From an uncultured Alphaproteobacteria bacterium (GTDB taxonomy: Bacteria; Electryoneota; RPQS01), in the NCBI GenBank assembly GCA_964406405.1, contig CAYORN010000002.1:248025-312024 (forward strand): a DNA stretch of 64,000 nt, in the 5' to 3' direction. How positions within the stretch are numbered: the first letter of the stretch is position 1; every line of letters begins with the position of its first letter. Below are positions 1 through 61,274 of this stretch, in pieces. Under the pieces are notes generated by a model. The model was given only the letters and a program-made list of their open reading frames with translations. It had not been told where the DNA came from and made no database searches. The translations under genes and the position numbers were made by a program.

Positions 1-923
1 TGCCGGTAGCCGAAGTCAATCGCGCGATAGAGTTTGAATTCGCGATTGGCCTGCGGCGGGCATTGCAGGATGTGCCGCACCGGATCGAACTCGCTGTACA
101 CCAGATCCTCGACGGCATCAAAGGAGATTTCCTGCTCCTGCTGCCATTTGGTGAGCGACAGGCCGGACATCGCGCCGCGCTTCCACTGCTCGTTGTTGCG
201 CTCGGGATGGACGGAGTAGTGGATGCGGTGAACTTGAAAGGATGAAGGATGAGGGATGAAGGATGAATCAACGTTTACAAGCTTCGCAAATAGATTCAGC
301 GCGCCGCCGCTTGATGAGACGCCGATGAATTGGCCGCCGCTGTCGAGCGCGGGTTTCAGGGCGGTCCAGATCTGCTCGTCGAAGGGTGTGAAGGCCATCT
401 CATCCCAGAAGACCGCGGTGGGTGAATACATGCGCGGGCCGTTGGGCGAGGCGGGTAGCGAGAGAATACGCGAGCCGATGCCAGCAAATTCAATTTCCTC
501 GGCGGAGTTGGTTTTGCGTTTCGGCTGCATGTATTCCGGTAAGTGATCGAGAATGAAGCGCGCGCGGTCGAGCAATTCTTCGGCACAGCGCTCGTTGCGT
601 GAGATGAACAGATAGAGTCCCGATTTCTGGAAGAGCGCGAGCCACAGAGTATAGGCAACGACGCTCCACGTCACCATCATCTGCCGCGACTTGGGGACGA
701 GCAAGAGCCGCTCCTTCTGCATCACCCAGAGGAATTCGCAGAGGTAATCGTAGTCGGGATATTGGCACACGCCGCGCTTCGGATCCTGAGTGTACACGTA
801 CTCAGTGAAGAACTGCCAGGGGTTTTCGGCGGCGGAGCAGAGGGATTGAAAGTCAGTACAATTCAAAGGATGAAGGCGGAAGGATGAAGGATGAATGAAA
901 GACGCTGTAGGGGCTGATTGCAT
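1..923 (-). CDS. Phage terminase large subunit-like protein (TerL), partial; C-terminus runs off the left edge
   Basis: Hand translation of the minus frame, which is absent from the ORF track because it has no stop inside the window. ATG at 921-923. Walker-A-like VPKSRQMMVTW and Walker-B-like VFWDEMAF. Downstream region HRIHYSVHPERNNEQW. Two in-frame GGATGAA arrays are embedded at 240-267 and 868-895. Confidence 0.5.
   Translation of the reverse strand, partial: MQSAPTASFIHPSSFRLHPLNCTDFQSLCSAAENPWQFFTEYVYTQDPKRGVCQYPDYDYLCEFLWVMQKERLLLVPKSRQMMVTWSVVAYTLWLALFQKSGLYLFISRNERCAEELLDRARFILDHLPEYMQPKRKTNSAEEIEFAGIGSRILSLPASPNGPRMYSPTAVFWDEMAFTPFDEQIWTALKPALDSGGQFIGVSSSGGALNLFAKLVNVDSSFIPHPSSFQVHRIHYSVHPERNNEQWKRGAMSGLSLTKWQQEQEISFDAVEDLVYSEFDPVRHILQCPPQANREFKLYRAIDFGYR
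240..267 (+). repeat. Heptamer tandem array GGATGAA-GGATGAG-GGATGAA-GGATGAA, preceded by AAA
   Basis: Read directly. It has the same unit order as the inverted copy at 61247-61274. Inside TerL it is translated antisense as SSFIPHPSSF. Confidence 0.8.
868..895 (+). repeat. Heptamer tandem array GGATGAA-GGCGGAA-GGATGAA-GGATGAA
   Basis: Read directly. Identical in structure to 16301-16328. It lies in the TerL N-terminal codons (SFIHPSSFRLHP). Confidence 0.8.
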
Positions 924-1050
924 CGCCCGCAGAAGTTTCAGAAATTTGTGACTGTGACCCGATGTCTATTGACTTTGCCAGATTGAGGCATTATTTTAGG
1001 TATCAGGTAAATTCGGTTGAATATGACGCAATTGGGAAGGAATTTATGCG

Positions 1051-2292
1051 ATGAAGGTCTTCAAGTACATATTGATTGTTGCGGCGCTCTGTGGATCGGC
1101 AGCGTGGGGGCAGGACAGCTTGCATGTGCGGACGTTGGGACACGTGCCCATGCTCAGCGACTGGTTTCACAATTTCGCAATTCAGGCCAGTTTCGCGTTT
1201 GTCGCGGAGGCTGAATTCGGTCTGCGGATTATTGATTTCTCGAATTCTGGCAGCCCGTTTGTGGCCGGTTCCTATAACGACGGGAGTCATATTCAGGCGG
1301 TCGCTGTCGTGGGAAACTACGCGTACGTCGTCAACGAGATGTCCCTCCAGGTGTTGAATGTTTCCAATGTTCAGAATCCGTTTGGGGTGGGAAGCTGCTT
1401 GCTTGACGCCGGTATTCCCTGGAATGTGAGCGTGGCGGGAAATTACGCGTATGTTTCTGATGTTCTCGGAGGATTCTCGATTGTGGACGTCACAAATCCT
1501 GCTTCACCGGCTACCGTGGGGTATTGGGATGGGGCGTGGGGGACTCATGATGTTAAAGTCGTTGGAACGTACGCGTACGTGGCGCACGACGAGGGTGGTC
1601 TTCGTGTTGTTGACGTCTCCGTTCCCTCGCAACCGGTACAGGTCGGTTACTGTCCGGCACACGTCTATTATGGCATTTATCGCGGCATTGACTCCGCGGT
1701 GGATGTGATGGGAAACTATGCGTACATAGCGGACATGTGGGGCTTACAAGTGGTGGACATTTCCAATCCGCAGGCACCGGTGGAGGTCTTTGACCTCACC
1801 GCAGAAAGCCAGACATTTGACGTGCTCACGGTGGACCACTACTTGTTCGTGGCAGATGGATGGGCGGGGCTGCGAATTATGGATATCACAATTCCAGCGA
1901 TACCGGTTCTCGTCGGTTATTATGACACGCCGGCCAACGCCTACCGGGTAGGGGCGCAGGGCTGTGTTGCCTGCGTGGACGACAGCTCGTCCCTTCGCTT
2001 TTACGATGTGACCTATTTCATTCCATGTGGACCGCCGTCCGCTCCGGCCGGACTTGCCATGCAGATTCCGCCGCGAAACAACAGGGTGAAGCTGCGCTGG
2101 TCGCCCGTCACGACGGACACCACGGGCGCACCCATTGAGGTTGATCGCTATGTCGTGTATGGCACGGCCCATCTGGATTCTATGCAATGGGATTCGATTG
2201 GAGTGCCCGTGCCGCCGGACACGACAGTATTTGTGGATTCGACGGCCACGGGAGAGCGCGGATTTTATCAGGTGCGGGCGGTGGTGGAGTAG
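1051..2292 (+). CDS. Secreted LVIVD-repeat beta-propeller protein with a C-terminal FN3-like region
   Basis: Signal peptide MKVFKYILIVAALCGSAAWG. Five or more repeats of the form GNYAYV..GLxVVDVSNPxxP, which is the LVIVD repeat pattern. Confidence 0.6.
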   Translation: MKVFKYILIVAALCGSAAWGQDSLHVRTLGHVPMLSDWFHNFAIQASFAFVAEAEFGLRIIDFSNSGSPFVAGSYNDGSHIQAVAVVGNYAYVVNEMSLQVLNVSNVQNPFGVGSCLLDAGIPWNVSVAGNYAYVSDVLGGFSIVDVTNPASPATVGYWDGAWGTHDVKVVGTYAYVAHDEGGLRVVDVSVPSQPVQVGYCPAHVYYGIYRGIDSAVDVMGNYAYIADMWGLQVVDISNPQAPVEVFDLTAESQTFDVLTVDHYLFVADGWAGLRIMDITIPAIPVLVGYYDTPANAYRVGAQGCVACVDDSSSLRFYDVTYFIPCGPPSAPAGLAMQIPPRNNRVKLRWSPVTTDTTGAPIEVDRYVVYGTAHLDSMQWDSIGVPVPPDTTVFVDSTATGERGFYQVRAVVE

Positions 2293-2315
2293 CGGCACGC
2301 GTTGCAGTTGTTGTT

Positions 2316-2351
2316 TTCCCCCCTATGATCCCCCCACGAAGTGGGGGGATG
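2316..2351 (+). terminator. Poly-C/poly-G hairpin CCCCCC-TATGAT-CCCCCCAC-GAA-GTGGGGGG followed by a T-rich run; member of a dispersed hairpin family
   Basis: Stem 2330-2337 pairs with 2341-2348. Sits 24 nt after the stop at 2292. A near-identical copy is at 13553-13592. Confidence 0.55.
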
Positions 2352-2352
2352 T

Positions 2353-2652
2353 TTATTTGGAGAAATGTTCCTGCAGAATCTTCAGCGCGTCTTCGACAGT
2401 CAGGGCGGAAGGATCGGAGGATTTGTCTTTCATCAGGTCAAGGAAGAGTTTCGCGGCGGAGGTGTTGCCGCCAATGGCCAAATCGTACAACGTGCGGAGC
2501 AGGTGCTGCACGGCATCGTCGGGGACAGGTTCGAAAGGAAGTTCGAGTTGCGGAGGTTTGGTTACGGGGCGAGTGCGGGAGCACTCGCCGCCGCGCGGAA
2601 GTTGTTGAGACTCGTTCGTGGCGGTCTCGATTTTCTGTCGTTTGGGAGTCAT
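2353..2652 (-). CDS. Small hypothetical protein, possibly an HTH/terminase-small-subunit-like protein
   Basis: 99 aa ORF. The segment LLRTLYDLAIGGNTSAAKLFLD resembles the HTH region of phage small terminase and sigma-like proteins. This is weak evidence. Confidence 0.3.
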   Translation of the reverse strand: MTPKRQKIETATNESQQLPRGGECSRTRPVTKPPQLELPFEPVPDDAVQHLLRTLYDLAIGGNTSAAKLFLDLMKDKSSDPSALTVEDALKILQEHFSK

Positions 2653-2675
2653 GAGATCGTATTAAGGATGAAATG

Positions 2676-2746
2676 GTAGGGCCGGCCGTTGGCCGGCTCT
2701 GTCATGTAATTGTGTCTTTTGGGAGCGGGCCGACGGCCCGCCCTAC
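2676..2746. repeat. GTAG-type REP doublet (REPIN): GTAGGGCCGGCCGTTGGCCGGCT plus the inverted partner GGGAGCGGGCCGACGGCCCGCCCTAC
   Basis: Each arm is internally palindromic. The arms are inverted relative to each other. The 5' GTAG is typical of REP elements. Confidence 0.5.
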
Positions 2747-2758
2747 AAGAGTTTCGTT

Positions 2759-3595
2759 TTACGCTTCGCGGGATTGGCGAAAGGTGGAGCGCAGCGACAT
2801 CGGCGTCAGAAACGGGGCGAGCGTTTGCCACGCCTGCTGCTCGTAGGTGCGTGAGAGCTGCTGCCATTCCTTGGCGCGGCCGGGAATGTCGGTGGTGGCG
2901 CGGCGGGACAACGCTTCCACGGCAAGCGCACGACAAATGATAGACAGCGCGAGTTCCGTGGCTCCGGTTTTCAAGCCCTGATTCGTAGAGTTGGCGTTGT
3001 AGTCCTCGGCCAGCGAGCGGAGAATGATGTCTTCGGCTTCGGTGATCGCTTCGTCAATCAGATCATCTTCGACGCTGCCCGCCGTGACCGTGTAATCCAC
3101 GATCACGCTGGCGCCGTCCGGAATCGCGCCGCCATCTTCGCGCGTGAGCAGGCCGGTCTGATCATTTAGAGAGTAATCCGTGTTGCGACCAAACAACGTG
3201 CAGAACGAATAGTAAACAATCACCGGCTGCATATCGGGAATCGCGCCGGTCGCCAGCCGCCGCACGCTGCCGCTGGTGTAGTCCACTTGATAGTCGAGCT
3301 CCTCGACAAAGATGGTGGTGAGCGCTTCGCTGAGCGTGACGACGACCGTGCCCGGGACAAGCTGCGGATGCTGTAGTGCTACGAACTCTTGCTCCTTCAG
3401 GGTCGCCGAGTTATCCATGAAGGGCGCGGTTTGCAAATCTTGTTTGACCGCGGCGGAATCGGCCACCAAATTGTGGTGCGGCAATTCAATGCTGGCGGTG
3501 CCGCTGAACGTTACGGGATGGTTGCGAATCACCAGCTCCGGAAAGGTGCTCGTGAGCAGGTGCGTTTTGACAAGAACGGGGGTGGTGAAGGACAT
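2759..3595 (-). CDS. Hypothetical acidic protein of the phage-like module, possibly scaffold or structural
   Basis: 278 aa ORF with acidic clusters (DDLIDEAITEAEDII). It is preceded by an octamer-array element. No family was recognised. Confidence 0.4.
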   Translation of the reverse strand: MSFTTPVLVKTHLLTSTFPELVIRNHPVTFSGTASIELPHHNLVADSAAVKQDLQTAPFMDNSATLKEQEFVALQHPQLVPGTVVVTLSEALTTIFVEELDYQVDYTSGSVRRLATGAIPDMQPVIVYYSFCTLFGRNTDYSLNDQTGLLTREDGGAIPDGASVIVDYTVTAGSVEDDLIDEAITEAEDIILRSLAEDYNANSTNQGLKTGATELALSIICRALAVEALSRRATTDIPGRAKEWQQLSRTYEQQAWQTLAPFLTPMSLRSTFRQSREA

Positions 3596-3610
3596 GGGAA
3601 GAGTGGTTTA

Positions 3611-3698
3611 GGAACAAGCCGACAAGCCAACAAACTGACAAGCCGACATGAAGAATCTGATGTCAGTATGTCAGCGTGTCGGATTGTCCGCTTGTGGG
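3611..3698. repeat. Inverted arrays of CTTGTCRG octamers (CYGACAAG x4, then NTGTCRG x5) forming a long imperfect palindrome
   Basis: Read directly. A paralogous element is at 8925-9004. Confidence 0.6.
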
Positions 3699-4064
3699 TT
3701 ATTCGCGGAAGAGTTGGAATTCGACGGTGGCAAAGAGCGTCGTGTTGTACGGTACGCTCTCGATTTGCAGGGCGGTGGTGCTGCCGTTCAGACGGACCTT
3801 GACCGTGAAATCACTGCCGGCATTCTGACAATAGACCGCCAGCGTATCGCCCATTTGAAAAGCGATTTCGTCAACGTCAAAGCGATACGTGGTGCCGTCC
3901 CACAGGTGCAGCGCGCTGATATAGCCGCGGCGCGAGAGCGGATACCCGTTGCCGGCCTGGCCGCCGGGACCGTTCAGGTAGAGCGATTGATTCGTCACCG
4001 CGCCGGAAAACGACATCATGTTCAGCGGTCGCGACGCGAAGAGGAAAGCGTGCGTGAGGTTCAT
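3699..4064 (-). CDS. Hypothetical protein of the phage-like module; start uncertain (ATG at 4064 or GTG at 4136)
   Basis: ORF 3699..4136. The internal start MNLTHAFLF at 4064 places the (GAGAYTT)3 array in the 5' UTR. Confidence 0.35.
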   Translation of the reverse strand: MNLTHAFLFASRPLNMMSFSGAVTNQSLYLNGPGGQAGNGYPLSRRGYISALHLWDGTTYRFDVDEIAFQMGDTLAVYCQNAGSDFTVKVRLNGSTTALQIESVPYNTTLFATVEFQLFRE

Positions 4065-4070
4065 GGGAAA

Positions 4071-4100
4071 GACCTGAGACTTGAGATTTGAGACTTGAAA
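4071..4100. repeat. Heptamer array ACCT-GAGACTT-GAGATTT-GAGACTT-GAAA
   Basis: Read directly. A second copy is at 14722-14746. Confidence 0.6.
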
Positions 4101-8456: not shown

Positions 8457-8900
8457 TTATGCATCCAGCAACACGTCGCAGGTGGTGTCGGTCGTGTTGA
8501 CGGCAATCACGAGGCCGCGATGCTTGGTGCCGCCGGCCGGGACGTCAGCCACGGTGGATGCTTGGCGGACTTTGCCCGCGCCGTCCACTTCGACTTTTTG
8601 ACCGATGACCGGCGTGGTGGCGGCATACTTGAAGCGCGCGATACCGGTGACCTGCACGGTGCAGAGCGCGGGAATCGCGGTGCCGGCTTGCAGCTCTTCG
8701 GACACCTTGATGACTTTGCCGAGCAGGCGGCCACCGGCGGCGCCCATGCCGACTTTGTTGTTGCTGGTCATGGCGCAGGCGACCAAGCCGTTATCGAGAT
8801 CGGTGAGCGTGAAATCCTGATTGGCGCCGGCATCCACTTCAAACGTGAGCTGCAGATTGGCGCCGGCGCCGTCGTTGGTGACGGAATAGGTGGTGGACAT
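8457..8900 (-). CDS. Putative phage head decoration/cement protein (DUF2190-like, Ala/Gly-rich)
   Basis: 147 aa counted from MSTTYSV, with AAGGAAA upstream. Gly/Ala/Val-rich beta-type composition. Immediately upstream of the putative capsid gene, which is the lambda D-E order. Confidence 0.35.
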   Translation of the reverse strand: MSTTYSVTNDGAGANLQLTFEVDAGANQDFTLTDLDNGLVACAMTSNNKVGMGAAGGRLLGKVIKVSEELQAGTAIPALCTVQVTGIARFKYAATTPVIGQKVEVDGAGKVRQASTVADVPAGGTKHRGLVIAVNTTDTTCDVLLDA

Positions 8901-8924
8901 CTTTTCCTTTTGTGGTTGGTTATA

Positions 8925-9004
8925 TGACAGCGGACAACTGACAAGCCGACAAGCTGACAGAAGGAGAATCACATTTTATCTCAGCATGTCGGAATGTCGG
9001 TTTG
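8925..9004. repeat. Inverted arrays of CTTGTCRG octamers (TGACAG..CTGACAAGCCGACAAGCTGACAG ... CATGTCGGAATGTCGGTTTGTCAG)
   Basis: Read directly. Paralog of 3611-3698. Confidence 0.6.
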
Positions 9005-9313
9005 TCAGCTTCTTCTTACGGGTGTGATCTTGTACGTCTCGTTGAAGAGCTTGCGCGCCGCGCGCCGAGCAAGCAGGAGCGCATCGCCTTGCAGCGTGTA
9101 GGCAAGTTGCGGTTCGGAGCATTGCGGAATCGGTCCGGTGAGTTCCAAGAGCGCTTTCAATTCGCGCTGGAACTCTTGTTCGTAATGCGTCGCGCGCAGG
9201 GACAGGTCTTCATAGGTGTGTGCGGCTTTGCGGAGCTGGTCCAGGAGCTGATCGAGATTCAGATCGGCTGGGTTCTCGAGTTGCCCGATGAGGGGGGAGA
9301 TGGGGTTTGGCAT
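9005..9313 (-). CDS. Hypothetical small protein of the phage-like module
   Basis: ORF 9005..9490, trimmed to MPNPISPLIGQ at 9313, directly after the conserved AAAATTGAAAA motif. Confidence 0.3.
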   Translation of the reverse strand: MPNPISPLIGQLENPADLNLDQLLDQLRKAAHTYEDLSLRATHYEQEFQRELKALLELTGPIPQCSEPQLAYTLQGDALLLARRAARKLFNETYKITPVRRS

Positions 9314-9696
9314 GGGGAAAATTGAAAATCGAAAAATGAAAAGTAGGGGGGAAGCGACGAAGATGCGGTGGGGGAAGACGCTCCTGTTCAAAAGTGACGG
9401 GCATAATGTACTATTTGACAAACGAAAAGTCAAGAACATTTCTAATAAAATGTACATCTGATTGTGTTTTCTGATATTTAATTTGAACACACGGACAAGT
9501 GCGTCCAGTTACAAATTCTGTTTGAACAAATGAATCCGTGCTTAGCGAAGGAAAGCACACTCTGGGTCAGTAAAATGAAACATGCCGTGGCGAGAGGCTG
9601 AATTGCCTCGACCCAAATGCGTGATTGGTTTGAAAACTATGCCAATCTCTTTGTTTGGTCAATTCAGATTTGAATGCGATCCGGCCGGACAAAATG

Positions 9697-11122: not shown

Positions 11123-13369
11123 ATGTACATTATTGGAATCGTGTTGGTGATGCTGCTCGGGGGAGGAGCCGGGTTTGCGCAAGATCCGATTTCCGAAATC
11201 CAAAACCCGAATCAGCCCTCCCTTTCCCCCCCCGTAAACGGAGGGGAAGCAAGAGTGGTGCGGGCGGTGCGGACGGCGTCACCGAAGATTGATGGGATCT
11301 TTGACGTGGAGTGGCTGAAGGCGGCGCTTGCGGATCACTTCGTGCAAAAAAGACCTGTGGAGGGCGCGCCTGAATCCCTGCCCACGCGGGTTTTTGTGCT
11401 CTATGACAATGACGCGCTGAATGTCTGCTTCGTGTGCAATGACCATCCGGATTCGATCAGCGCGCGCGTGCTGCGGCGGGACAATGATGATAACTGCGAT
11501 GTGGTGTACATCGCTTTGGATTCGTTTCATGATCGGCGCAATGCCTACTATTTCGGACTGACGGCGGCCGGCGGGCAGGTGGATGGCACCTTTTCCAACG
11601 AGAGCGTGACCGACGGCTCGTGGGACGGAATCTGGGAGTCAGCGGTGGGGAGAACCGACAGCGGTTGGGTGGCGGAGATGCGGATTCCGTTCAGCAGCTT
11701 CCGGCACGGCGGCGCGCGTGCGGACGGCTGGGGATTTCAACTCGAACGGGACGTAAACCGCCGCCAGGAAGAAACGTACTGGCAGCCGGTGTCGGTGCAA
11801 CGCGGCGTGCGGGTGGGAGAGTTTGGAATCCTGGCGGGGCTGGAGAACATCGGCTCGGCGCGGCATCTCGAAGTGCTGCCGCACGCGGTGGCGAGGTTCG
11901 ATGCTCCTGCGGACAGCAACTGGAAGTCGCGGAGCGAATGGAAGGATCTCGGGTTTTACGCGAAGTACGTTCCGGCGGCCTCGTGGACGGTGGACTTTGC
12001 CTATCAGCCGGACTTCGCGCAGGTGGACGTGGATTACGAAGTGATTCAGCTCTCCGATTATCCGGTGTTTTATCCGGAGAAGCGGCCTTTTTTTCTCGAA
12101 GTGAACAACTTCTTTGACACCGCGCCGATTTCGCTCCTGTACACGCGCAGGGTCACTGATCCGGATTTTGGGGGGAGAATTTACGGGCAGTCGGAGAAGT
12201 TTCGGGGGATGGTGTTAGGGGGGCAGAATCGGAATGAACATGGAATTCGTGAGTATGTGACTGCAGGTCGTGCGGTGCTCAATCTGGGTAAACAGCACCA
12301 ACTTGGGCTTACTGGAACAAGTCTATACCGACCGAATGCAGTGCCGTTGGGCGATGCATTTCGCGCGTACACGGGCGGATTGGATGCACGGATCCGGTGG
12401 GGGGCGGAGAATCGGTGGTCATTGTCTGCGGCGGGTGTAAAGCGAGACCGTGTAACGATCGCGGGGGCAGACAAGCTCAATGATCAGCCCTTCGAATTCC
12501 GCAATAGCCTGTATCTGAATCTGCATCCGCTGCCAGTGAAGATGAGCCTGACGGACAACTATCGCGGGCAGGATTACAACATCAATGACTTGGGCTGGAC
12601 GGATTTTTCGAACACGATTGAGCACTACATCTGGTTCGGGAACAACTGGCAGCCGGGAAAGATGCTGGTTCAGCAGTGGGGCCTGGATTTGAACGGCTGG
12701 CAGCGCAACCTGCCCGACGGCACGTTTCCCGAAGGCGGTGGCAATGTCGGGACGTGGTTTCGGACGAAAGAGAATTTTGAATACGGCGGCGGCTGGCAAT
12801 GGGGACTCTTGAGCCGCCGGAATTATGAGACCAACGATAAGTACGTCGTGGGCGAATTCCGGGACAACTTCTTCGAAGATTACGGACGGTTCGTGCTGGA
12901 GCCGCATTATTACCAAGCCGGGTGGGCGTGGTTCGAGACTGACGACCGGACGTGGCTCACGTACTTGAGCGAGGGCACTTACGGCCTGTTCCGCGAAGGG
13001 CACAAGTGGTCGTGGAATCAGGCGGTGACGGTGAAGCCGCGCGCCAATCTGGAAACGACTTTTGCGTCGAACTGGACACAGGTGTGGGGAGTCAGCGATT
13101 ATGATAATTATCAGCCGACGACGTTTCGCGTGTGGCGCTGGGTCACGCGCTATTCGCCGACGTTGAATTTGTCTTTGCGCGGGACGTTACAGTGGATCGA
13201 GGAAGACAAGCAGTTGCTGACCAATCTGTTGCTGGCGTGGAACTGGCATCCGGGAAGCTGGTTCTACGCGGTGTATGACGAGGGTCGCATGACCAATCCG
13301 CTGGCATACAAAACCGAAGGGGACCGGACGGTGCGAGTGAAGGCGACGTATTTTTTTACGGTGAAATAG
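11123..13369 (+). CDS. DUF5916 / carbohydrate-binding family 9-like outer-membrane-associated protein
   Basis: Signal peptide. The N-terminal CBM9-like signature is IDG..D..W...........P..G.P......V..LYD...L.....C.D........R.RRD.....D.V.I.LD.F.D.RN, followed by a long Trp/Tyr-rich beta region. Confidence 0.6.
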   Translation: MYIIGIVLVMLLGGGAGFAQDPISEIQNPNQPSLSPPVNGGEARVVRAVRTASPKIDGIFDVEWLKAALADHFVQKRPVEGAPESLPTRVFVLYDNDALNVCFVCNDHPDSISARVLRRDNDDNCDVVYIALDSFHDRRNAYYFGLTAAGGQVDGTFSNESVTDGSWDGIWESAVGRTDSGWVAEMRIPFSSFRHGGARADGWGFQLERDVNRRQEETYWQPVSVQRGVRVGEFGILAGLENIGSARHLEVLPHAVARFDAPADSNWKSRSEWKDLGFYAKYVPAASWTVDFAYQPDFAQVDVDYEVIQLSDYPVFYPEKRPFFLEVNNFFDTAPISLLYTRRVTDPDFGGRIYGQSEKFRGMVLGGQNRNEHGIREYVTAGRAVLNLGKQHQLGLTGTSLYRPNAVPLGDAFRAYTGGLDARIRWGAENRWSLSAAGVKRDRVTIAGADKLNDQPFEFRNSLYLNLHPLPVKMSLTDNYRGQDYNINDLGWTDFSNTIEHYIWFGNNWQPGKMLVQQWGLDLNGWQRNLPDGTFPEGGGNVGTWFRTKENFEYGGGWQWGLLSRRNYETNDKYVVGEFRDNFFEDYGRFVLEPHYYQAGWAWFETDDRTWLTYLSEGTYGLFREGHKWSWNQAVTVKPRANLETTFASNWTQVWGVSDYDNYQPTTFRVWRWVTRYSPTLNLSLRGTLQWIEEDKQLLTNLLLAWNWHPGSWFYAVYDEGRMTNPLAYKTEGDRTVRVKATYFFTVK
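11215..11246 (+). repeat. Poly-C hairpin element CCCTCC-CTTTCCCCCCCCC-GTAAAC-GGAGGGG inside the coding sequence (encodes SLSPPVNGGE)
   Basis: Same element family as 42213-42238 (intergenic) and 63921-63952 (also coding, PPVNGGG). Confidence 0.55.
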
Positions 13370-13552: not shown

Positions 13553-13592
13553 TTTCCCCCCTATGATCCCCCCACCAAGTGGGGGGATTGAT
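13553..13592 (+). repeat. Poly-C/poly-G hairpin TTTCCCCCCTATGATCCCCCCACCAAGTGGGGGGAT (copy of 2316-2351)
   Basis: About 36 of 40 nt are identical to the 2316 copy. Confidence 0.6.
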
Positions 13593-13660: not shown

Positions 13661-14716
13661 ATGAGACTTAGCATCTTATTCTTTATAGCTTTGCTGGCGG
13701 CCATGGTCGCGCAGGCGGAGACACGGGTCAGCGGCAACGTGTCCGGGACGTGGAGCGAAGAGGGCAGCCCGTATGTCGTGGAAGGGAACATCACGGTGCC
13801 TGCGGGCGAGAAGCTCCTGATCAAGCCGAAAGTGGTGGTACGGTTTGACGGGCCTTACTCCTTCACGGTCAACGGCGAGCTGCGGACACATGAAAGCAAG
13901 TACAAATTGGGCGGTATCAAGCTCGAGATCGGCAACGGGAAGAAGGACAAAGAGACCATGATCCTGTTCACGTCCGATGCGGACGGTACCGGCTGGGGCG
14001 GAATCCGGTTCGTGAAAGCCGATCGGGATTGTGAGCTCACGAATTGCCGGATTGAGCAAGCGGACGTGGCCGGCGACGGCGGGGGCGTGTATTGCGAAGG
14101 CTCGGACGTGGCGATTACAAACTGCGAAATCGAGAACTGCGCGGCGACCGGCTCGGGCGGGGCGATTGCGTGCGTGGGTGGCGACGTGGCGATCACGAAC
14201 TGCGACATCACTCACAACTCCGCGGGCGGCATGGGCGGCGCGATCTACGGCCATGGCGCGAGCATTGCCGTGACGAATTGCGCGGTGAGTGAGAACCGCG
14301 GCGGCGGCATCGCGTGCGTCTCCAAGTCTGAAGTAGCGGTAACCAATGTTGAAATTACCAAGAACACCGGGGCGACGCTGGGCGGCGGCCTCTATTTGAA
14401 ACAGAGCGAAGGCGCGCTGACGAATGTCGAGATCACCGGCAATGAGAACGGCGGCGTGGCGGCGCTGGACAAGTCTGAGCTGGTCGTGACTAACGGCGAC
14501 ATCACCGGGAATCTGGGCAGCGATCGCGCCAACGGAATTCTGTGCGTCAACAGCGAGATGGTGTTTACGAACGGCGAGATCAGCGGCGGGGCAGAGCATG
14601 CCGTTGGATGCTTTGAGAATTCATCGGCCGTGATCACCAACGCGGATCTCTCCAACAGCCATGGCTTGGACAAGGACGAGAGTTCGGAAGTGACGGCGGT
14701 GAACGTGGCGTACTAA
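13661..14716 (+). CDS. Secreted right-handed parallel beta-helix repeat protein
   Basis: Signal peptide MRLSILFFIALLAAMVAQA. Repeats of the form NCxIxxNxAxGxGGAI (ITNCEIENCAATGSGGAIACVGG...). AGGAGA Shine-Dalgarno. Confidence 0.6.
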   Translation: MRLSILFFIALLAAMVAQAETRVSGNVSGTWSEEGSPYVVEGNITVPAGEKLLIKPKVVVRFDGPYSFTVNGELRTHESKYKLGGIKLEIGNGKKDKETMILFTSDADGTGWGGIRFVKADRDCELTNCRIEQADVAGDGGGVYCEGSDVAITNCEIENCAATGSGGAIACVGGDVAITNCDITHNSAGGMGGAIYGHGASIAVTNCAVSENRGGGIACVSKSEVAVTNVEITKNTGATLGGGLYLKQSEGALTNVEITGNENGGVAALDKSELVVTNGDITGNLGSDRANGILCVNSEMVFTNGEISGGAEHAVGCFENSSAVITNADLSNSHGLDKDESSEVTAVNVAY

Positions 14717-14721
14717 GACGT

Positions 14722-14773
14722 GAGACCTGAGACTTGAGACTTGAAAGGCGGCTTGAAGGCCGCCTTTTTTTTG
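14722..14773 (+). terminator. (GAGACYT)3 heptamer array fused to a rho-independent terminator GGCGGC-TTGAA-GGCCGCC-TTTTTTTT
   Basis: Read directly. Sits 6 nt after the stop at 14716. Confidence 0.7.
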
Positions 14774-14970: not shown

Positions 14971-15000
14971 TTGACAAGGTCACCATATGGTGACTATATT
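14971..15000 (+). promoter_or_regulatory. Sigma70-like promoter (TTGACA at 14971-14976, TATATT at 14995-15000) overlapping the perfect palindrome GGTCACCATATGGTGAC (14978-14994); TetR operator
   Basis: Read directly. The palindrome sits between -35 and -10, directly upstream of the TetR gene. Confidence 0.6.
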
Positions 15001-15634
15001 GCTGAACAGTCAAGGGAGATGGACCGTGAGAGACAAAGACCAGACGAAACAGAAGATATTACAAGCGGTTGGAAAGCTGATTGCGGAGGGGAACGGGAAG
15101 GCGGGGGTGAATGCCGTGGCGCGGGAAGCCGGAGTGGACAAGGTGCTCATCTACCGCTACTTCGGTGGGATGCCGGAGTTGCTGAGAGCCTATGTCTCTG
15201 AAGGCGAGTTCTGGCCGGGCTTCGAGGATGTGATGGAGACCAGCCCTTACGTAGCCGCCATGCTGCCGCCGGGGGAAATCGGCACCCGCTTCGTGCACGG
15301 CTTCATCCGCGAACTGCGCTCGCGCCCGGTGACGCTCGAAATCCTCCGGCGCGAACTGCAGGAGACGAACGCCCTGACCGCCGAGTTAACAAGGGTGCGG
15401 GATGACTGGACGCGCGACATCGGTGAAAGCTATGCCGGGCGGGGCGGCGATCCGGAAGCGCTGCACGCGCTTGTCACGGCCGGACTGATCTATCTGATGC
15501 TGGCGGGCAAGACGATGGAGACGTTTTGCGGCGTGGACGTGCGAACGGACGAGGGCTGGGAGCGGATCGAGCGGGCGGCGGGGAGGATGTTTGAAAGGAT
15601 GAAGGATGAAGCAGAAAGAAAACTTGAAACTTAA
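14987..15634 (+). CDS. TetR/AcrR-family transcriptional regulator (true start probably GTG at 15026 after AAGGGAGA)
   Basis: N-terminal HTH KILQAVGKLIAEGNGKAGVNAVAREAGVDKVLIYRYFGG. The listed ATG lies inside the operator palindrome. The C-terminus (RMKDEAE) is encoded by the GGATGAA repeat at 15597-15610. Confidence 0.75.
   Translation: MVTILLNSQGRWTVRDKDQTKQKILQAVGKLIAEGNGKAGVNAVAREAGVDKVLIYRYFGGMPELLRAYVSEGEFWPGFEDVMETSPYVAAMLPPGEIGTRFVHGFIRELRSRPVTLEILRRELQETNALTAELTRVRDDWTRDIGESYAGRGGDPEALHALVTAGLIYLMLAGKTMETFCGVDVRTDEGWERIERAAGRMFERMKDEAERKLET
15597..15610 (+). repeat. Heptamer array (GGATGAA)2 preceded by TTGAAA
   Basis: The 20-mer TTGAAAGGATGAAGGATGA is shared with locus 234-253. Confidence 0.6.
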
Positions 15635-16328: not shown

Positions 16329-16342
16329 ATAAGGCCAAGAAT

Positions 16343-48947: not shown

Positions 48948-49349
48948 TTATTTGCTCTTGGCTTGTCGCTTAGAATTTGACTTCAGCCAAGCAGCGAACT
49001 CAGGCTCCGAGATTTCTTTCGTCGTCAGTCCTAACGTCATGGAAACGGCTTCGGGCTCCGGCAGTTCGACTTTGAAACCGTTCAGGATGAGAAACAGACC
49101 GGCACAGGTCAGCGCGGCGCGTTTGTTCCCATCCACGAAAGGGTGGTTGCGGGTGATCGCCTGCGCGTAACCTGTCGCGAGCGTGAAGAGGTCTGACTCG
49201 CCATGGTGGAAACGGTTGCGAGGACTGTCCAGTGCGGAATCGAGCAGATTCTCGTCACGAATTCCAGCCGAACCTCCAAAGCGCACCAGCAGTTTGTCGT
49301 GGAACGCCAGCACCATGTATTTGCTGAGCCACTCCGGCTCGCGTTTCAC
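48948..49349 (-). CDS. doc: Doc (death-on-curing) toxin, Fic family
   Basis: Fic motif HPFVDGNKRAALTCAGLFL. Confidence 0.8.
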   Translation of the reverse strand: MKREPEWLSKYMVLAFHDKLLVRFGGSAGIRDENLLDSALDSPRNRFHHGESDLFTLATGYAQAITRNHPFVDGNKRAALTCAGLFLILNGFKVELPEPEAVSMTLGLTTKEISEPEFAAWLKSNSKRQAKSK

Positions 49350-49570: not shown

Positions 49571-49628
49571 TGCTTACATCTGGGAATGCTGCGACACGGA
49601 GGTCGCTGCCTAATGGGGTTTAACAATA

Positions 49629-49657
49629 ATTATAACAAATATCGGGCCGATTGTCAA
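49629..49657 (-). promoter_or_regulatory. Consensus sigma70 promoter TTGACA-17-TATAAT for the antitoxin-doc operon, with an AT palindrome (ATAATTAT) over the -10 box
   Basis: Minus strand reads CCCCCTTGACAATCGGCCCGATATTTGTTATAATTATTGTT. Conserved at the paralogous copy 53623-53651. Confidence 0.65.
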
Positions 49658-49738
49658 GGGGGGTTTCGGCGGGGTCAAGGGGTCCCGATTTTAGAATATG
49701 CCGAGACCCATAGACCCCGCATGGCGAAAAGCCTAAGC

Positions 49739-52048: not shown

Positions 52049-52354
52049 CTAGCGTCTTCGGTAGCGACGTAATTTTCTTCCGTCCTGGGTCTTGATGATC
52101 CGGTTGGATTTGTTGGGGGCGATCAGTTCCACGCCGTGCTCGTGGAGAAGTTGTTCGTCCAGTGGATCACTGTCATAGGCTTTGTCACCGATCAGGCGGG
52201 GCGGAAGTTCGTCGAGGAAGAGAGCCTTCAGCGTTTCCCGCACCAGCTTTATTTCATGCGGCGAAGCACTCGCCGTACAGATGGCGATAGGAAAACCATG
52301 GCGGTCTGCAATTGCCATGACCTTTGTGCCTTTGCCCCGCTTGGTTTTTCCCAC
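52049..52354 (-). CDS. IS5-family transposase OrfB (DDE catalytic C-terminal part), expressed by a -1 frameshift as an OrfAB fusion
   Basis: The -1 frame after AAAAAAG reads ...[25 protein letters not shown].., continuous with orfB. Confidence 0.65.
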
Positions 52355-52701
52355 CTGCCGCCCCCTTTTTTCGCCGGCACGAACATGCCGTCGATGAAGG
52401 ATTCGGACAGATCAAGACCGCCGCGGTCTCGCAGGTCTAAGGCCAGGGCCAGCAACACGCGCCAGAACGTCTCATCGCGACAGTATTCCTGAAAGCGGCG
52501 ATGGCAGGTTTGGTAGGGCGGATAGCGATCCGGTAAATCATGCCACGGGGCTCCCGTCCTCAAGATCCATAGGATCGCATTCCAGACGTCGCGCGCCGGA
52601 ACGCGGGGCCGACCCCGACCATCCACCTTGCCGCGTCTAAGCCGAGGCTTCTCAATCAGTAAGGGGGCAATCCGAGTCCACTGGTCGTCGCTCAAGTCCA
52701 T
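52249..52701 (-). CDS. IS5-family transposase OrfA (DUF4096 N-terminal HTH part)
   Basis: [19 protein letters not shown]...[22 protein letters not shown]. Ends after the slippery site GCGAAAAAAGGGGGC at 52361-52375. Confidence 0.7.
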
Positions 52702-52966: not shown

Positions 52967-53365
52967 TCAACTCCTTCTTCCGCGCCGGGAGAAGGTTTTG
53001 AGCCAGTCGGCGAATTCTCGCTCCGTGACCTTGTTCGTGGCAAGCTTTATCACCATCACAACGGCATCTGCTTCCGGCAATTTGACGGTGAAGCCGTTCA
53101 ACATCAGAAAGAGACCGGCACACGTCAATGCGACACGTTTGTTGCCGTCCACGAACGGATGATTGCGACTGATCGCCTGAGCGTAAGCCGTGGCCAGCAT
53201 GAATACATCCGTCTCGCCGTAGTGGAAGCGGTTCTTGGGACTATCTAACGCCGAATCCAGCAAGCCTTCATCACGCAGCCCGGACACGCCTCCAAAGCGC
53301 ACGAGAAGTTCGTCATGAATTGGAAGAACGAAGCGCTTTTCCACCCACGCCGGCTCACGCTTCAC
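52967..53365 (-). CDS. doc: Doc toxin, second copy (about 70% identical to 48948..49349)
   Basis: HPFVDGNKRVALTCAGLFL. Confidence 0.8.
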   Translation of the reverse strand: MKREPAWVEKRFVLPIHDELLVRFGGVSGLRDEGLLDSALDSPKNRFHYGETDVFMLATAYAQAISRNHPFVDGNKRVALTCAGLFLMLNGFTVKLPEADAVVMVIKLATNKVTEREFADWLKTFSRRGRRS

Positions 53366-53586: not shown

Positions 53587-53622
53587 AACTTACCGTTGTG
53601 ACTGAGTTTAAGTTTTACAATA

Positions 53623-53651
53623 ATTATAACACACCTTGGGCCAGTTGTCAA
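53623..53651 (-). promoter_or_regulatory. Consensus sigma70 promoter TTGACA-17-TATAAT, paralogous to 49629-49657
   Basis: Minus strand reads CAGCCCTTGACAACTGGCCCAAGGTGTGTTATAATTATTGT. Confidence 0.65.
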
Positions 53652-53739
53652 GGGCTGCAAGAAAAGAAGCGCCCCGCCGGGCCGCCGCGCAATCTGTCCT
53701 TATGTCCTGAGTTCCTTCTTCCTCGCCGCGGGGAACAAC

Positions 53740-54490: not shown

Positions 54491-55768
54491 TTACGTCTTC
54501 AATTCCTTCTTCCGCGCCGCGGGGAATAGCACGTTATTCAGAATCAAGCGGTAGCCGGGAGAGTTCTTGTGCAGCGCGAGATTCGTGGGCGGGTCGCCGA
54601 CCTGATGGCGATAGTCCTCCGGGTCGTGCCCGCCGTAGTACGCGAAGAAGCCCTTGCCGAACGGGCCGTAGAGATATTTCACCTCATCCGTGCCTTCGTT
54701 CTGCGCAAGGATCGTCACCGACGACTTGATGAAGCGCTTATGGAACGCCGTCGTCTGCCCCATGAACCCCTTCACCACGCTGGTATGATCCTGCGTCAGC
54801 ATCGAGGGCACCGGATCGTACTTGGCCGAGAAATCAAAGAGTGTAAAATAATCGCCTTCGTCCCCGCGCGCCATCCGCCCCGTGCGCGGCGACACGTCAA
54901 TGTCCGAAAACTCGTAGATCATCGGATCGGTGAACAGCGTGTAGTCCTTGAAAGTCAGCCCGTAATCGAAGCGCAGCTTGTTCATGAAGCCGGGATCAAT
55001 GCCGTCGCCGTCGAACGTCGGCGCGCAGATGTCCGTCTCCGCGGCGGAGAGCGCGATGTCGTAGCTGTCCGTCGCGCTGCACATGGCGAACATGAAGCCG
55101 CCCTGCCCGAGATAGCTGCGCAGCGTGCGCGCCACCGCGAGCTTCAATTGGGAGACCTTGGCAAAGCCCAGCGCATGCGCGCGCGCTTCTTCGGTCTGCA
55201 CCTGCCGGATGTACCAATCCGCGTTGCGATACATCGAATAGAATTTGCCGTACTGCCCGGTGAAATCTTCGTGATGCAAATGCACCCAGTCGTATTTGCC
55301 GAGCTTCCCCGCGAGAATATCTTCGTCGTAGATCCGGTCGAACGGAATCTCGGCATACGTCAGCGCGAGGTTCACCGCGTCATCCCACGGCCCGTCCTCT
55401 ACCTCCGGCGGCGCATAGATCGCGATCTTCGTCGCCTTTTCCAGCACCACGACTTCCATATTGTTCTGATCAATCTCGGCGTACACGGCGCCCGCGTCGG
55501 CGGTTTCGCTGGCCACGCCGCGCAAGCGGCAGTCGCTCTCAATCTCCGGCGCGGAATCCATCATGAAACTCCCGCCGCGGTAGTTGAGCAGCCACTCCAC
55601 CTTGAGTCCGCGCGAGAGCGCCTCCCACGCAATGCCATAGGCCTTGAGGTGATCTGTCTGCGAGAGATCCATCGGAATCAAGAGCTTCTGGGCGAAAGCC
55701 GGAAGAGCCAGCAGCAAAACGCAAAGGATGAAGGATGAAGGATGAAGGATGAAACGGAAAGCGTGCAT
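54491..55768 (-). CDS. Secreted hypothetical protein; the signal peptide is partly encoded by the (GGATGAA)4 array
   Basis: MHAFRFILHPSSFILCVLLLALPAFAQ. About 425 aa. No family recognised. Confidence 0.45.
   Translation of the reverse strand: MHAFRFILHPSSFILCVLLLALPAFAQKLLIPMDLSQTDHLKAYGIAWEALSRGLKVEWLLNYRGGSFMMDSAPEIESDCRLRGVASETADAGAVYAEIDQNNMEVVVLEKATKIAIYAPPEVEDGPWDDAVNLALTYAEIPFDRIYDEDILAGKLGKYDWVHLHHEDFTGQYGKFYSMYRNADWYIRQVQTEEARAHALGFAKVSQLKLAVARTLRSYLGQGGFMFAMCSATDSYDIALSAAETDICAPTFDGDGIDPGFMNKLRFDYGLTFKDYTLFTDPMIYEFSDIDVSPRTGRMARGDEGDYFTLFDFSAKYDPVPSMLTQDHTSVVKGFMGQTTAFHKRFIKSSVTILAQNEGTDEVKYLYGPFGKGFFAYYGGHDPEDYRHQVGDPPTNLALHKNSPGYRLILNNVLFPAARKKELKT
55726..55753 (+). repeat. Heptamer array (GGATGAA)x4, perfect
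   Basis: Read directly. Antisense to the gene, it is translated as FILHPSSFIL. Confidence 0.8.
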
Positions 55769-57065: not shown

Positions 57066-57071
57066 GTTGCT

Positions 57072-59469: not shown

Positions 59470-59482
59470 AAGATTCCTCTGC

Positions 59483-60940
59483 TTACTTCAGCAACACCAT
59501 TTCCCGCGTGACGCTCTTGTCCCCGGCATTCAGCCGCACAAGATACACGCCTGACGGCTGCTGTTCCGCGTTCCACGTCACCTGATGCCGCCCGGCGTTC
59601 TGCGTTCCGGAAACGAGCGTCGCCACCTCGCGTCCGCTAATGTCGAAGATCGTCAAATTCACCGGCGCCGTAGCGGTCAACTCATACTCGAGTTGCGCCA
59701 CCGCATTGAACGGATTCGGGTAAGACGAAAGGATAAAGGACAAGGGATGAGGGATGAAATTATCCTCCGCCGCCAGCACCTCTTCCTGCGGCAAGGCGAA
59801 CAAAAATGCGCCGCCCGGCACGCCGCCCGGCAGCGGCGCGGTCGTGAAAACTGCATACACTGTCCCGCCGTCCACCAGGACGTCCACGCTATTGCAAGCT
59901 TCGTTTTCGGGCATCGGCTCGATGTGCAACAGGCCGGTGGACTGCCCGTTGGCATCCATCCCTTCGATCCACACCTGTTGTTCGCCCTGCGTCTGCGACA
60001 CCACGAACCCAATCACGCTCGTGCCCCACGGTCCCGGCGCAATATTCCAATAGGCCGCAAAGCGCTGCACCGGCAGCGGTCCCGGATCGAACGGGTCATG
60101 CGCTATGGTGAAGTCCATTGCATGTATGACCAATCGCAGGCTGTACTCCACCGGACTCGAAGTGGGCTGGACGCTCGTCACCAGCATCCGCAGTTCGCCG
60201 TTCGTATAGTCGAAGGCCGGCGTGCTGTTGAACCAGCCGTCGGCCAGTGTTTCGTGATACAGCGTCACCGGATTCTGCGGCGTACCGTCGCTGGCGAATG
60301 GATGCAGAACTGCATCTATTACGATCGCCGCTCCTTCTTGATGCGGATTGTACTCCACCAGAATCGCTTGCGATCCCGCCGCGTACACAAAAGCGATGTT
60401 CGTCAGCGCCAGCGTGTCTTCGCGGGTGATCGTGCCGTTCACGTCCGCCCAAATCAAAATCTGCTGATTGATGTTGAATTCATAATAGGTGACAAAAATG
60501 CCGCTCGGCAGCGTGATCGCCGTCGGACTGATCGCGTTTCCGCGATGCAACGTATCCAGTATCTGCCCCTCCGGGGAGATAAACAGGAGTTCGAGTTCCG
60601 TCACTCAACTGTGGTACACCATGTACGGATCGCTGCCGTCCATGGCGTGCAGAATCGTCAGGTTTCCCGGGCAATAGATCACGCCCAACGGCACTTCCTG
60701 ATAGTTGATGCGTTCCACCACCTGTCCCTGTGCTGCCACGCGCGCGCCATGCGTCGCCACTTGCGCCTCCGACACCGACGACCACGAGCACAACAGGTTC
60801 GCACCGTCGTGCTCGATGTGCGGATAGAAATAATTGATGCCGGTTCCCAGATCCAACCGCACCGGATCGAAATCCTCCTGTGCCAACAGCATCAGCGGCA
60901 CGGCCAGCAGCAGTACAATGTAAGCCAATCTCATGTTCAT
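59483..60940 (-). pseudogene. T9SS cargo protein gene interrupted by a single in-frame TGA (at 60605-60607); N-terminal signal-peptide segment 60608-60940, C-terminal segment 59483-60604
   Basis: ...YMVYHS-TGA-VTELELL...: both ORFs are in the same frame. The signal peptide MNMRLAYIVLLLAVPLMLLAQ is only in the upstream segment, and the T9SS CTD (YPNPFNAVAQLEY...VYLVRLN...MVLLK) is only in the downstream segment. Confidence 0.5.
59731..59758 (+). repeat. Degenerate heptamer array GGATAAA-GGACAAG-GGATGAG-GGATGAA
   Basis: Antisense to the gene, it is translated as FIPHPLSFIL directly before the T9SS CTD. Confidence 0.6.
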
Positions 60941-61048
60941 TCCATGGTTGTAAAGAATGCGGGAAAAGAGAAGTTTTGATGTGGTTTTCAGCAGAGCCGT
61001 CTTGCGGTGTTCATTTTGGAATTTCAACTTGCGGCTCATACGTGTACA

Positions 61049-61113
61049 TTTCGGGCAGGTTCTTGTCTGACTGTCCGTCACGTTGTAAGCTCGCCGTGGA
61101 ACCTGCCTCGGCG
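61049..61113 (+). repeat. Solo copy of the RAYT-associated REPIN (TTCGGGCAGGTTCTTG...GGAACCTGCCTCGGCG)
   Basis: Aligns with 30226-30286. It lies in the promoter region of the gene starting at 60940. Confidence 0.6.
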
Positions 61114-61246
61114 AAATTATCAAGCAGATCCTCTGCTATTCACGCGCCGGGCGAGTTTCGAAGCATTCCTGTATCCTGAAGCCACAACCGGAGGTTGTGG
61201 CTAGTCTGATCGGGTCCGACTGGGATTTCGGAATTTTCACTCGGGC

Positions 61247-61274
61247 TTCATCCTTCATCCCTCATCCTTCATCC
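61247..61274 (-). repeat. Heptamer array GGATGAA-GGATGAG-GGATGAA-GGATGAA on the minus strand (inverted copy of 240-267)
   Basis: Sits 6 nt after the TGA stop of the gene ending at 61280. Confidence 0.8.

Follow-up and report, generated by a model that had tools for sequence, protein, structure and literature searches.

A 2007 survey by Mrazek and colleagues is reported to have found that heptanucleotide repeats are the most over-represented class of long simple sequence repeats (SSRs) in many bacteria. Here we describe one family of such repeats, the dispersed AAA(GGATGAA)n arrays in a 64 kb stretch of bacterial DNA (contig CAYORN010000002.1), which we call the window. The closest described relatives are the GGGAATC repeats of Xanthomonas and the GGGGA(C/T)T repeats of Nostoc PCC 7120, in which four units are preferred (Rehm et al. 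2015, PMC4692102). These lie 28 nt from the open reading frame (ORF) on their 5' side and 160 nt from that on their 3' side, whatever the orientation of the ORFs. They are found on the coding strand downstream of genes, including overlaps with stop codons, and on the non-coding strand upstream. They also form inverted pairs, are retained between the same genes in related genomes and have no known function (PMC4692102). The repeats studied here, written GGATGAR, are likewise dispersed tandem heptamers at ORF borders, with about four units, a position nearer the 5' ORF, the strand rule just given, overlaps with stop codons, inverted pairs and persistence between the same genes of relatives. They differ in having only GG tracts and no predicted G-quadruplex, in their FCB-group host, in the antisense translation of several copies, and in the spread of the same sequence across many phyla.

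The second relevant system is the TAACTGA repeat of marine Beggiatoaceae, Cyanobacteria and some Bacteroidetes, with 2-6 copies per set and more than 100 sets per genome (MacGregor 2015, PMC4679880). In the forward orientation it has stops in all three frames and only overlaps ORF ends, while the reverse orientation is open and is found peripherally in a few proteins (PMC4679880). GGATGAR follows the same reading-frame logic and has a similarly patchy distribution across phyla with no evident vehicle. However, forward TAACTGA sets are mostly a few nucleotides upstream of starts, whereas forward GGATGAR follows stops and its reverse precedes starts. The unit is also different, and no alternative RNA polymerase subunit is associated with it. 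In Nostoc, (TTTTGAA)3-4 repeats close to start codons have been described in a preprint. The STRR sequences of heterocystous cyanobacteria (Calothrix/Nostoc) are similar in that there are several heptamer families per genome, mostly intergenic. Their units (CCCCAGT, TTGGTCA, CAACAGT) are unrelated to ours, and neither a rule of strand or position nor a constant module of 30 nt is part of the descriptions of STRR or of the long SSRs.

We suggest that the arrays in the window are copies of a module, AA(GGATGAR)4, which belongs to this known class of heptameric SSRs (STRR, GGGAATC, TAACTGA) and is renewed by a length-limited, template-dependent process. We put the probability of this reading at about 0.6. 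What is new about GGATGAR is the family and the lineage that carries it, while the kind of element was known before. The window itself is ordinary chromosomal DNA of an FCB-group bacterium that has many proteins sorted by the type IX secretion system (T9SS). Metagenome-assembled genomes (MAGs) of Calditrichota and KSB1 are the nearest relatives with a name, and the closest named homologs are in MAGs of these two groups, of LCP-89 and of Zixibacteria. The 64 kb contain seven AAA(GGATGAA)n arrays, against 0 expected by chance, and each follows AAA, exactly where a preliminary description of this DNA had placed them:

237-267, plus strand: AAA(GGATGAA-GGATGAG-GGATGAA-GGATGAA), antisense within a TerL-like ORF (3-866, minus strand).
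865-895, plus strand: AAA(GGATGAA-GGCGGAA-GGATGAA-GGATGAA), abutting or overlapping the TTG start (866-864) of the TerL-like gene.
15594-15610, plus strand: AAA(GGATGAA)2, sense, overlapping the 3' end of a TetR gene (14987-15634).
16298-16328, plus strand: AAA(GGATGAA-GGCGGAA-GGATGAA-GGATGAA), intergenic between an HTH_17 gene (15741-16016, minus strand) and a CMD gene (16447-16806, plus strand).
55723-55753, plus strand: AAA(GGATGAA)4, antisense in the signal peptide of a conserved secreted protein (54491-55768, minus strand).
59728-59758, plus strand: degenerate AAA(GGATAAA-GGACAAG-GGATGAG-GGATGAA), antisense in ORF 59483-60604 (minus strand).
61247-61277, minus strand: AAA(GGATGAA-GGATGAG-GGATGAA-GGATGAA), sense, 2 nt past the TGA stop (61282-61280) of a DUF4175-like gene (61280-63868).

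Four units are present in five of the seven arrays. The array at 15597-15610 has two units only, and that at 59731-59758 is decayed, with three mismatches to (GGATGAR)4. Tandem Repeats Finder (TRF) reports period 7 with 4.3-4.4 copies and 82-100% matches at 238, 866, 16299, 55724 and 61246. The sequence GGATGAAGGATGAA occurs eight times in the window (0.00 expected from 100 dinucleotide shuffles), and a four-unit 28-mer, with up to three mismatches allowed, occurs five times (0 expected in dinucleotide-preserving shuffles). The earlier view of a non-random, dispersed family is supported. The shared internal orders that had been noticed are also real. Positions 236-267 and 61247-61278 are 100% complementary across 32 nt, and 868-895 and 16301-16328 are the identical 28-mer GGATGAA-GGCGGAA-GGATGAA-GGATGAA. 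No Rfam family matched the window at the gathering threshold, and a literature search on the repeat sequence itself returned no relevant paper.

The family extends far beyond this organism. Three public scans covered genome, viral and metagenome contigs, and their counts are lower bounds. (GGATGAR)3 was found at at least 119 loci of genome contigs in more than 10 bacterial phyla, including Acidobacteriota, Planctomycetota, Chloroflexota, Cyanobacteria, Bacteroidota, Verrucomicrobiota, Armatimonadota, Hydrogenedentes and Ignavibacteriota, and at at least 120 loci of viral contigs. The Chloroflexota carriers include a complete genome, that of Herpetosiphon aurantiacus DSM 785. Metagenome contigs give at least 120 loci, with unrelated flanks and a G+C content of 0.39-0.71, for the exact 28-mer that has GGCGGAA in its interior. 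Bases -2 and -1 of its copies are A in 97-98% of cases. Beyond this AA the flanks of 124 copies share nothing, and they show no terminal inverted repeat and no target duplication. Since the AA is nearly constant and the flanks are unrelated, the repeat is a discrete 30-nt module of AA and four heptamers, AA(GGATGAR)4. Separately, the idea that GGATGAR is a uniquely special heptamer was rejected. Control heptamers with an equal base composition in viral loci, namely (GAGTGAR)3 (92 loci), (TGGAGAR)3, which has no stop (29), and (GGTAGAR)3, which contains TAG (11), are all far above chance, so that GGATGAR is frequent but has company.

Two features, length and polarity, connect GGATGAR with other heptamers. 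The loci behind these class statistics were chosen because they contain GGATGAR arrays. Period 7 is dominant among their tandem repeats (405 of 1189 TRF rows), and four units are present in 63 of the 140 GGATGAR arrays from genome loci among the matches listed. The period-7 families that were not selected for peak at 4.x copies and fall steeply at five (50, 50, 54, 16 and 9 in one series; 71, 81, 99, 30 and 6 in another). For periods 6, 8 and 9 the copy number decays monotonically. Since the four-unit mode is also seen in families without G tracts, the published explanation by G-quadruplexes cannot be general. For GGATGAR itself no G-quadruplex is predicted by ViennaRNA with G-quadruplex terms, in keeping with its GG tracts, and the minimum free energy (MFE) of an array alone is 0.0 kcal/mol in both orientations, i.e., it is unstructured.

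The polarity is fixed with respect to the ORFs. Inside ORFs, (GGATGAR)3 is never in the sense orientation, with 46-51 antisense cases per set, and 14 of the 41 ORF-internal antisense arrays in the first genome tally are within the first 30 codons. Another 29-37 arrays run over the 3' end of an ORF on their own strand. For the rest, the median distance is 6.5-14 nt to the same-strand upstream stop and 37-157 nt to downstream genes. An inverted partner accompanies 46 of 118 copies (39%). Among array pairs within 100 nt, the purine array comes first in every case, giving 30, 29 and 48 convergent pairs (107 in total) and 0, 0 and 0 divergent ones. Many of these pairs lie between convergent ORFs whose stop codon is the TGA of the array itself. 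In 358 arrays of other families, the side of the ORF can be predicted from the purine-rich strand (80 vs 35, p = 3e-5) but not from the strand carrying TGA (44 vs 42). Even for stop-less units the purine-strand orientation is predictive (42 vs 21). The rule is that the purine-rich strand runs 5' to 3' away from the adjacent ORF, and stop codons decide only whether an array can sit inside a same-strand ORF (3 same-strand and 41 opposite cases). Downstream of stops the array is thus part of the coding strand, and upstream of starts it is part of the non-coding strand. As the purine strand points away from the ORF, mRNA trailers carry GGAUGAA and leaders carry UUCAUCC. The evidence is that the whole class shares the four-unit length and the purine polarity, whether or not its members could form G-quadruplexes or contain stop codons.

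There is no replication-strand bias, since the arrays show no association with GC skew among the genome loci (mean 0.0006), and the positive skew of arrays in viral contigs reflects the one-strand orientation of viral genes. In heptamer units no trinucleotide is more enriched than TGA/TCA (56 of 141 families vs 34 expected, 49 of 168 vs 31 and 8 of 10 vs 2.5). Seeding of arrays by duplication of a native stop codon is not favoured, as long ORFs stop in unit 1, 2 or 3 at roughly 10:4:6.

In the window, four of the five non-internal arrays (865, 15594, 55723 and 61247) follow the polarity rule. The window also contains sister families in similar positions:

4070-4098, plus strand: (AGACTTG)4, overlapping the stop codon of a 147-aa gene (3648-4091).
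14716-14744, plus strand: (AGACTTG)4-type array that begins at the TAA stop of gene 13661-14716 and is followed by a hairpin and a T-run.
15620-15640, plus strand: (AAACTTG)3, containing the TetR stop TAA (15632-15634).
15666-15686, plus strand: (TTCAGCGT)2.6 in pyrimidine orientation, the retained inverted partner of a (CGCTGAAA)-type array that is still at the TetR end in the relative L503.
3614-3700, plus strand: convergent octamer pair (ACAAGCCG)4 / (TGTCAGCx)4, between and over the starts of divergent genes 2759-3595 (minus strand) and 3648-4091 (plus strand).
8925-9010, plus strand: another convergent octamer pair from this family, which extends across the start of 8457-8972 (minus strand) and the stop of 9005-9490 (minus strand).

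Inverted pairing in the window is limited to the octamer family, and the polarity of its pairs is convergent, as in the heptamer arrays. The octamers, (ACAAGCCG / CTGACAAG)n with an inverted copy, form long imperfect hairpins at 3608-3705 and 8920-9015 that span gene starts and stops. The folding energies are -37.9 kcal/mol (z = -4.5) for 3614-3700 and -37.5 kcal/mol (z = -6.3) for 8925-9010.

What an array does to a gene depends on the strand that is read. The purine strand of GGATGAA has TGA in all three frames, so sense arrays only end ORFs, as in the TetR tail and after the stop of the DUF4175-like gene. The pyrimidine strand is open in every frame and its 30 nt make ten codons, and therefore arrays survive in one leader and one signal peptide, in a linker between domains and in another before a C-terminal domain (CTD). 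The behaviour of arrays in coding DNA is that of a passive reading-frame filter. Array 240-267 is translated as SSFIPHPSSF in a hypervariable linker of the TerL-like protein, just before the conserved F-x-V-H-R-I-H-Y motif. The TerL-like homologs all start at MNSSDFQ, which corresponds to the window TTG at 866-864. Therefore the array at 865-895 is a pyrimidine-rich 5' leader abutting the start codon, outside the protein. From the sequence, deleting 866-895 restores ..TTTC-ATG-AAT.. at this point. The signal-peptide array (55726-55753) gives MHAFR-FILHPSSFIL-CVLLLALPAFA/QK, and array 59731-59758 is read as FIPHPLSFIL (about residues 283-292) directly before the Pfam match to the T9SS CTD (295-369). 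Thus the antisense in-frame readings had been placed correctly in the linker, the signal peptide and before the CTD, but TerL contains one array rather than the two that were claimed. The TetR tail, ..ERMKDEAERKLET*, is array-encoded on the sense strand as had been proposed, though it does not end there and continues through (AAACTTG)3 to the TAA at 15632-15634. At the 61247 locus, the first GGATGAA unit begins 5 nt after the TGA stop, not 6 nt.

The resemblance of the repeat to a ribosome-binding site followed by a start codon does not hold up. The ATGs of the array open ORFs of five codons (MKDEG*, read from the sequence), and downstream same-strand ORFs are at a median distance of 157 nt in genomes. 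Similarly placed sister families in the window have neither AAGGA nor ATG. Pairing with a generic tail of 16S rRNA amounts to -7.6 kcal/mol, compared with -20.4 kcal/mol for a full Shine-Dalgarno (SD) sequence.

The history of the arrays can be followed in related contigs, which are designated by L numbers. At least 20 orthologs of the signal-peptide protein (79-89% identity) have an array peptide at the same place, FILHPSSFIL, FIPHPSSLIP or FIVHRSSFIV, and more distant orthologs do not. These orthologs carry the peptide from repetitive DNA, where non-repetitive codons would have spoken against a repeat origin. L368, L369 and L370 all have perfect 30-nt arrays. That of L368 is identical to the (TTCATCC)4.3 of the window, that of L370 is a mix of CTCATCC and TTCATCC, and that of L369 is (TTCATCG)4.3, with all four units switched. 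Between these genes, the identity is 0.47-0.62 at 4-fold-degenerate sites and 0.75-0.79 over all nucleotides. By simple arithmetic, a 30/30 match of the array has a chance of about 6e-4 at a whole-gene identity of 0.78, and a lower one at the neutral-site rate. In the TerL linker, L244, L245 and L246 have heptamer arrays at the same codon with other unit variants, among them GGTGGAA and GGCGGAG at the same place in the interior. The unit number is 4.3 in every ortholog examined at these two sites. Because the orthologs carry repeats at the same codon, the arrays of the signal peptide and the TerL linker are old rather than recent insertions.

Other sites are less constant. The closest TerL ortholog, L120, has a plain ATG start and no array there, and in its linker a CCCCC..GGGGG hairpin element takes the place of the array. 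This element (L120 10600-10650) is of the TTTCCCCCC hairpin kind described below and is translated as PPSDGG..EGG; PPxxGG stretches are present in other orthologs. Another TerL ortholog (P0012, alignment A1, columns 220-290) has (HETGA)6 in the same hypervariable linker, a translated repeat with a period of 15 nt. TetR orthologs end about 8 aa earlier than the TetR of the window. In L503, with flanks that align closely with the window, the TetR end has a different array (xxGCTGAA units) and its inverted partner, and the window has (GGATGAA)2 and (AAACTTG)3 and keeps just that inverted partner. In L244 and L245, the intergenic regions orthologous to 4070-4098 have arrays of other families or orientation. 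Relatives thus have at orthologous sites either the array itself or one from a different heptamer or octamer family, and in some cases no array. At the TerL start and the TetR tail, relatives lack a GGATGAA array. The L368 counterpart of the T9SS protein is too diverged to place the pre-CTD array as an insertion or otherwise. Strains L120-L123 show no array polymorphism and differ only by a masked stretch.

These comparisons show that array sites persist while their content is replaced or homogenised as a block, with no decay by point mutation. Perfect arrays in genes with saturated synonymous sites point to homogenisation or replacement, or to selection at the nucleotide level. The preliminary description had taken shared interior variants as a sign of copying rather than independent slippage. 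Copying or homogenisation is indeed needed, and not independent point mutation, because the 28-mer is at at least 120 unrelated loci, orthologous arrays are perfect and the array of L369 has switched as a whole to TTCATCG. The order shared by 240 and 61247, on the other hand, says little about copying within this genome, because in many phyla no single-G variant is seen more often than GGATGAA-GGATGAG-GGATGAA-GGATGAA (13 of 140 arrays). The arrays also disturb assembly and sequence records. A Logan unitig from the same organism (L367, SRR13723393), 100% identical to window 16300-18400, starts exactly at the 16298-16328 array, and in L503 the stretch orthologous to the 16301 site (about 1835-1930) is masked by Ns.

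We propose that the modules would be made and renewed by a process that is limited in length and dependent on a template. Candidates are replication slippage, template switching or gene conversion between arrays at GAR...GAR microhomologies, and no transposase is proposed. The polarity would reflect selection at the level of mRNA. A leader that is G-free, start-free, stop-free and unstructured may be tolerated or useful, also in N-terminal coding sequence, and a purine-rich array with SD-like and AUG sequences may be tolerated only after a stop codon. Several points weigh against this proposal. No process that makes or renews arrays has been observed, and the strains L120-L123, as said, do not vary. 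Plain slippage predicts decaying copy numbers and lineage-specific units, not a sharp four-unit mode, and it does not predict one 28-mer with the same interior variant in organisms of 39-71% G+C. If slippage changed the length of the array in the signal peptide or in the linker of TerL, the frame would be shifted. Selection acting on leaders and trailers accounts for the allowed orientations, but does not obviously account for the way arrays hug the ORF. The fifth non-internal array of the window, 16298-16328, is an exception in being nearer its 3' neighbour. In addition, the ORFs in foreign loci were called by a crude longest-ORF rule.

The alternative that survives best is possible, though we consider it considerably less probable. 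Here the array is a cis-acting site in RNA or single-stranded DNA for a trans-acting factor with four 7-nt binding sites, and is kept by purifying selection. Candidates for the factor are OB-fold proteins such as S1 or cold-shock proteins for the pyrimidine version, CsrA-like proteins (A-R-GGAUG), or a HutP/TRAP-like ring that reads a triplet every 7 nt. Cold-shock proteins bind heptanucleotides, and the unit AAGGAUG / AGGGAUG equals A-R-GGAUG, the core of the CsrA consensus from systematic evolution of ligands by exponential enrichment (SELEX). S1, Csp and CsrA have also been listed as candidates for the TAACTGA repeats (PMC4679880). Such a site would be consistent with the nucleotide-level conservation in the signal peptide, where 4-fold sites are only about 50% identical, with the sharp, family-independent four-unit mode and with the strand-specific placement beside starts and stops. 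However, hundreds of heptamers share the four-unit length and the polarity, so that no single sequence-specific reader fits, and families are switched at orthologous sites. The arrays are unstructured, whereas CsrA sites are normally in hairpin loops, and neither CsrA nor another candidate was found among the window ORFs scanned. In a comparison with RNAs of the CsrB/RsmZ type, in which a dedicated sRNA presents GGA motifs in hairpin loops, the unit matches A-R-GGAUG; however, the arrays are unstructured, the window has no Rfam match and no csrA, and the sister families have no GGA. Published reporter and transcriptome work on sister families has also given no clear role (PMC4692102).

A bolder explanation, which we regard as unlikely, would make the four-heptamer module of about 30 nt a pan-bacterial and phage unit, with dedicated machinery that actively writes it at ORF borders and rewrites it there. 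This could be an enzyme of templated synthesis or conversion, or a single-strand-binding reader with four sites, e.g., the four RNA-binding OB folds of S1. Such machinery would explain the family-independent four-unit length, the 107:0 convergent polarity, the whole-array switches and the perfect in-gene conservation.

More doubtful again is a very small mobile element, copied by an enzyme encoded elsewhere in the manner of REP/REPIN sequences, MITEs or the cyanobacterial SDR elements. REP/REPIN sequences are highly repeated, extragenic units of 20-40 nt, often in inverted doublets capable of forming hairpins, that are mobilised by RAYT transposases. The identical 30-31-nt copies at unrelated window loci and the 28-mer at at least 120 unrelated metagenomic loci would fit this idea, as would the TerL-start array that is present in the window and absent in a relative. 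The 39% of copies in inverted doublets recall REPINs, and the TerL linker of the sister genome holds another small repeat, the CCCCC..GGGGG hairpin. Yet the GGATGAR unit is not palindromic and has no conserved 5' tetranucleotide, no terminal inverted repeats, no target duplication and no hairpin. The loops of its doublets differ both in sequence and in length, and often the two arms do not line up in register. A REP family is specific to its lineage, but the GGATGAR module spans phyla, persists at orthologous sites and switches its unit as a whole. No RAYT, IS200 or reverse-transcriptase gene was found among the approximately 50 window ORFs scanned.

We find it improbable that the arrays are three-frame stop cassettes which end read-through or frameshifted translation at gene ends. 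Though the enrichment of TGA/TCA, the use of the array's own TGA as the stop codon of many ORFs, and the larger numbers of TGA-containing heptamers (at least 120 and 92 loci) than of TAG-containing (11) or stop-less ones (29) are in line with it, orientation follows the purine strand even for stop-less units and is indifferent to the TGA strand. On this last result we rejected stop-cassette logic as the organising rule. Moreover, GGGAATC, a sister family from the literature, contains no stop codon, one frame stays open in the widespread GGCGGAA variant (with 9 sense-internal cases), and about one third of the copies are antisense in leaders or genes, where stops are irrelevant. Least credible are contingency loci that would switch TerL, the secreted protein and others through slippage in unit number, the phase variation raised in the preliminary description: a period of 7 would indeed shift the frame with each unit and some host genes encode secreted or surface proteins, but the unit number is 4.3 in every ortholog examined, copy number peaks at four with no long tail, hosts include conserved housekeeping-like genes, and published analyses of sister families argue against phase variation (PMC4692102).

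The window has other repeats and gene arrangements besides these arrays. G+C-rich nested hairpins, TTTCCCCCC..CCCCCC-loop-GGGGGG, are present at 2315-2350, 13553-13588 and 23056-23091, in copies up to 97% identical. Downstream of T9SS-protein genes there are three copies (39758-39787, 42150-42177 and 44257-44284) of a terminator-like hairpin, AACCCCCGG-loop-CCGGGGGTT. A 39-nt inverted repeat, 90% complementary and with a CCCCCCCC-GTAAAC-GGAGGGG hairpin, links 11213-11251 with 63917-63955, 52 kb apart. The TerL-like (terminase-large-subunit-like) gene is also conserved in Calditrichota, KSB1, LCP-89 and Zixibacteria-type MAGs, where it lies on chromosomal contigs of Mb size. It belongs to a conserved cluster (window 3-4091; L120, L244, L245 and L246) with proteins of 278, 147, about 360 and about 85 aa that have no Pfam match. 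This cluster may be a domesticated phage-like or gene-transfer-agent-like module. Fic/DOC genes are duplicated at 48948-49349 and 52967-53365, with a 300-nt direct repeat of 71% identity (48982-49281 vs 52998-53297) and an upstream motif of 43 nt that is 84% identical (49618-49660 vs 53612-53654). A fragment of an IS4/5-family transposase (DUF4096, 52249-52701) lies between them. The adjacent genes 34341-36251 and 36282-39179 encode large proteins of GGG-rich 45-nt (15-aa) repeats, each ending in a Peptidase_S74 intramolecular-chaperone domain, which gives them a tail-fibre-like or ice-binding-like architecture.

Heptamer repeats have been known since STRR, and their origin and function are still without an accepted account. 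This study adds a very widespread family, GGATGAR, in phyla where the class was undescribed and in viral contigs. It also adds clean cases of in-gene arrays that are kept perfect while synonymous sites saturate, and of whole-array unit switches. Beyond the published papers, the four-unit mode is found without G tracts, and the polarity follows purine content and not stop codons. For annotation there is a warning, since these modules lengthen proteins at the N-terminus, add tails at the C-terminus, insert 10 residues and break contigs. Cultivable carriers such as Herpetosiphon aurantiacus DSM 785 would make a dedicated writer or reader of the module testable, if there is one.

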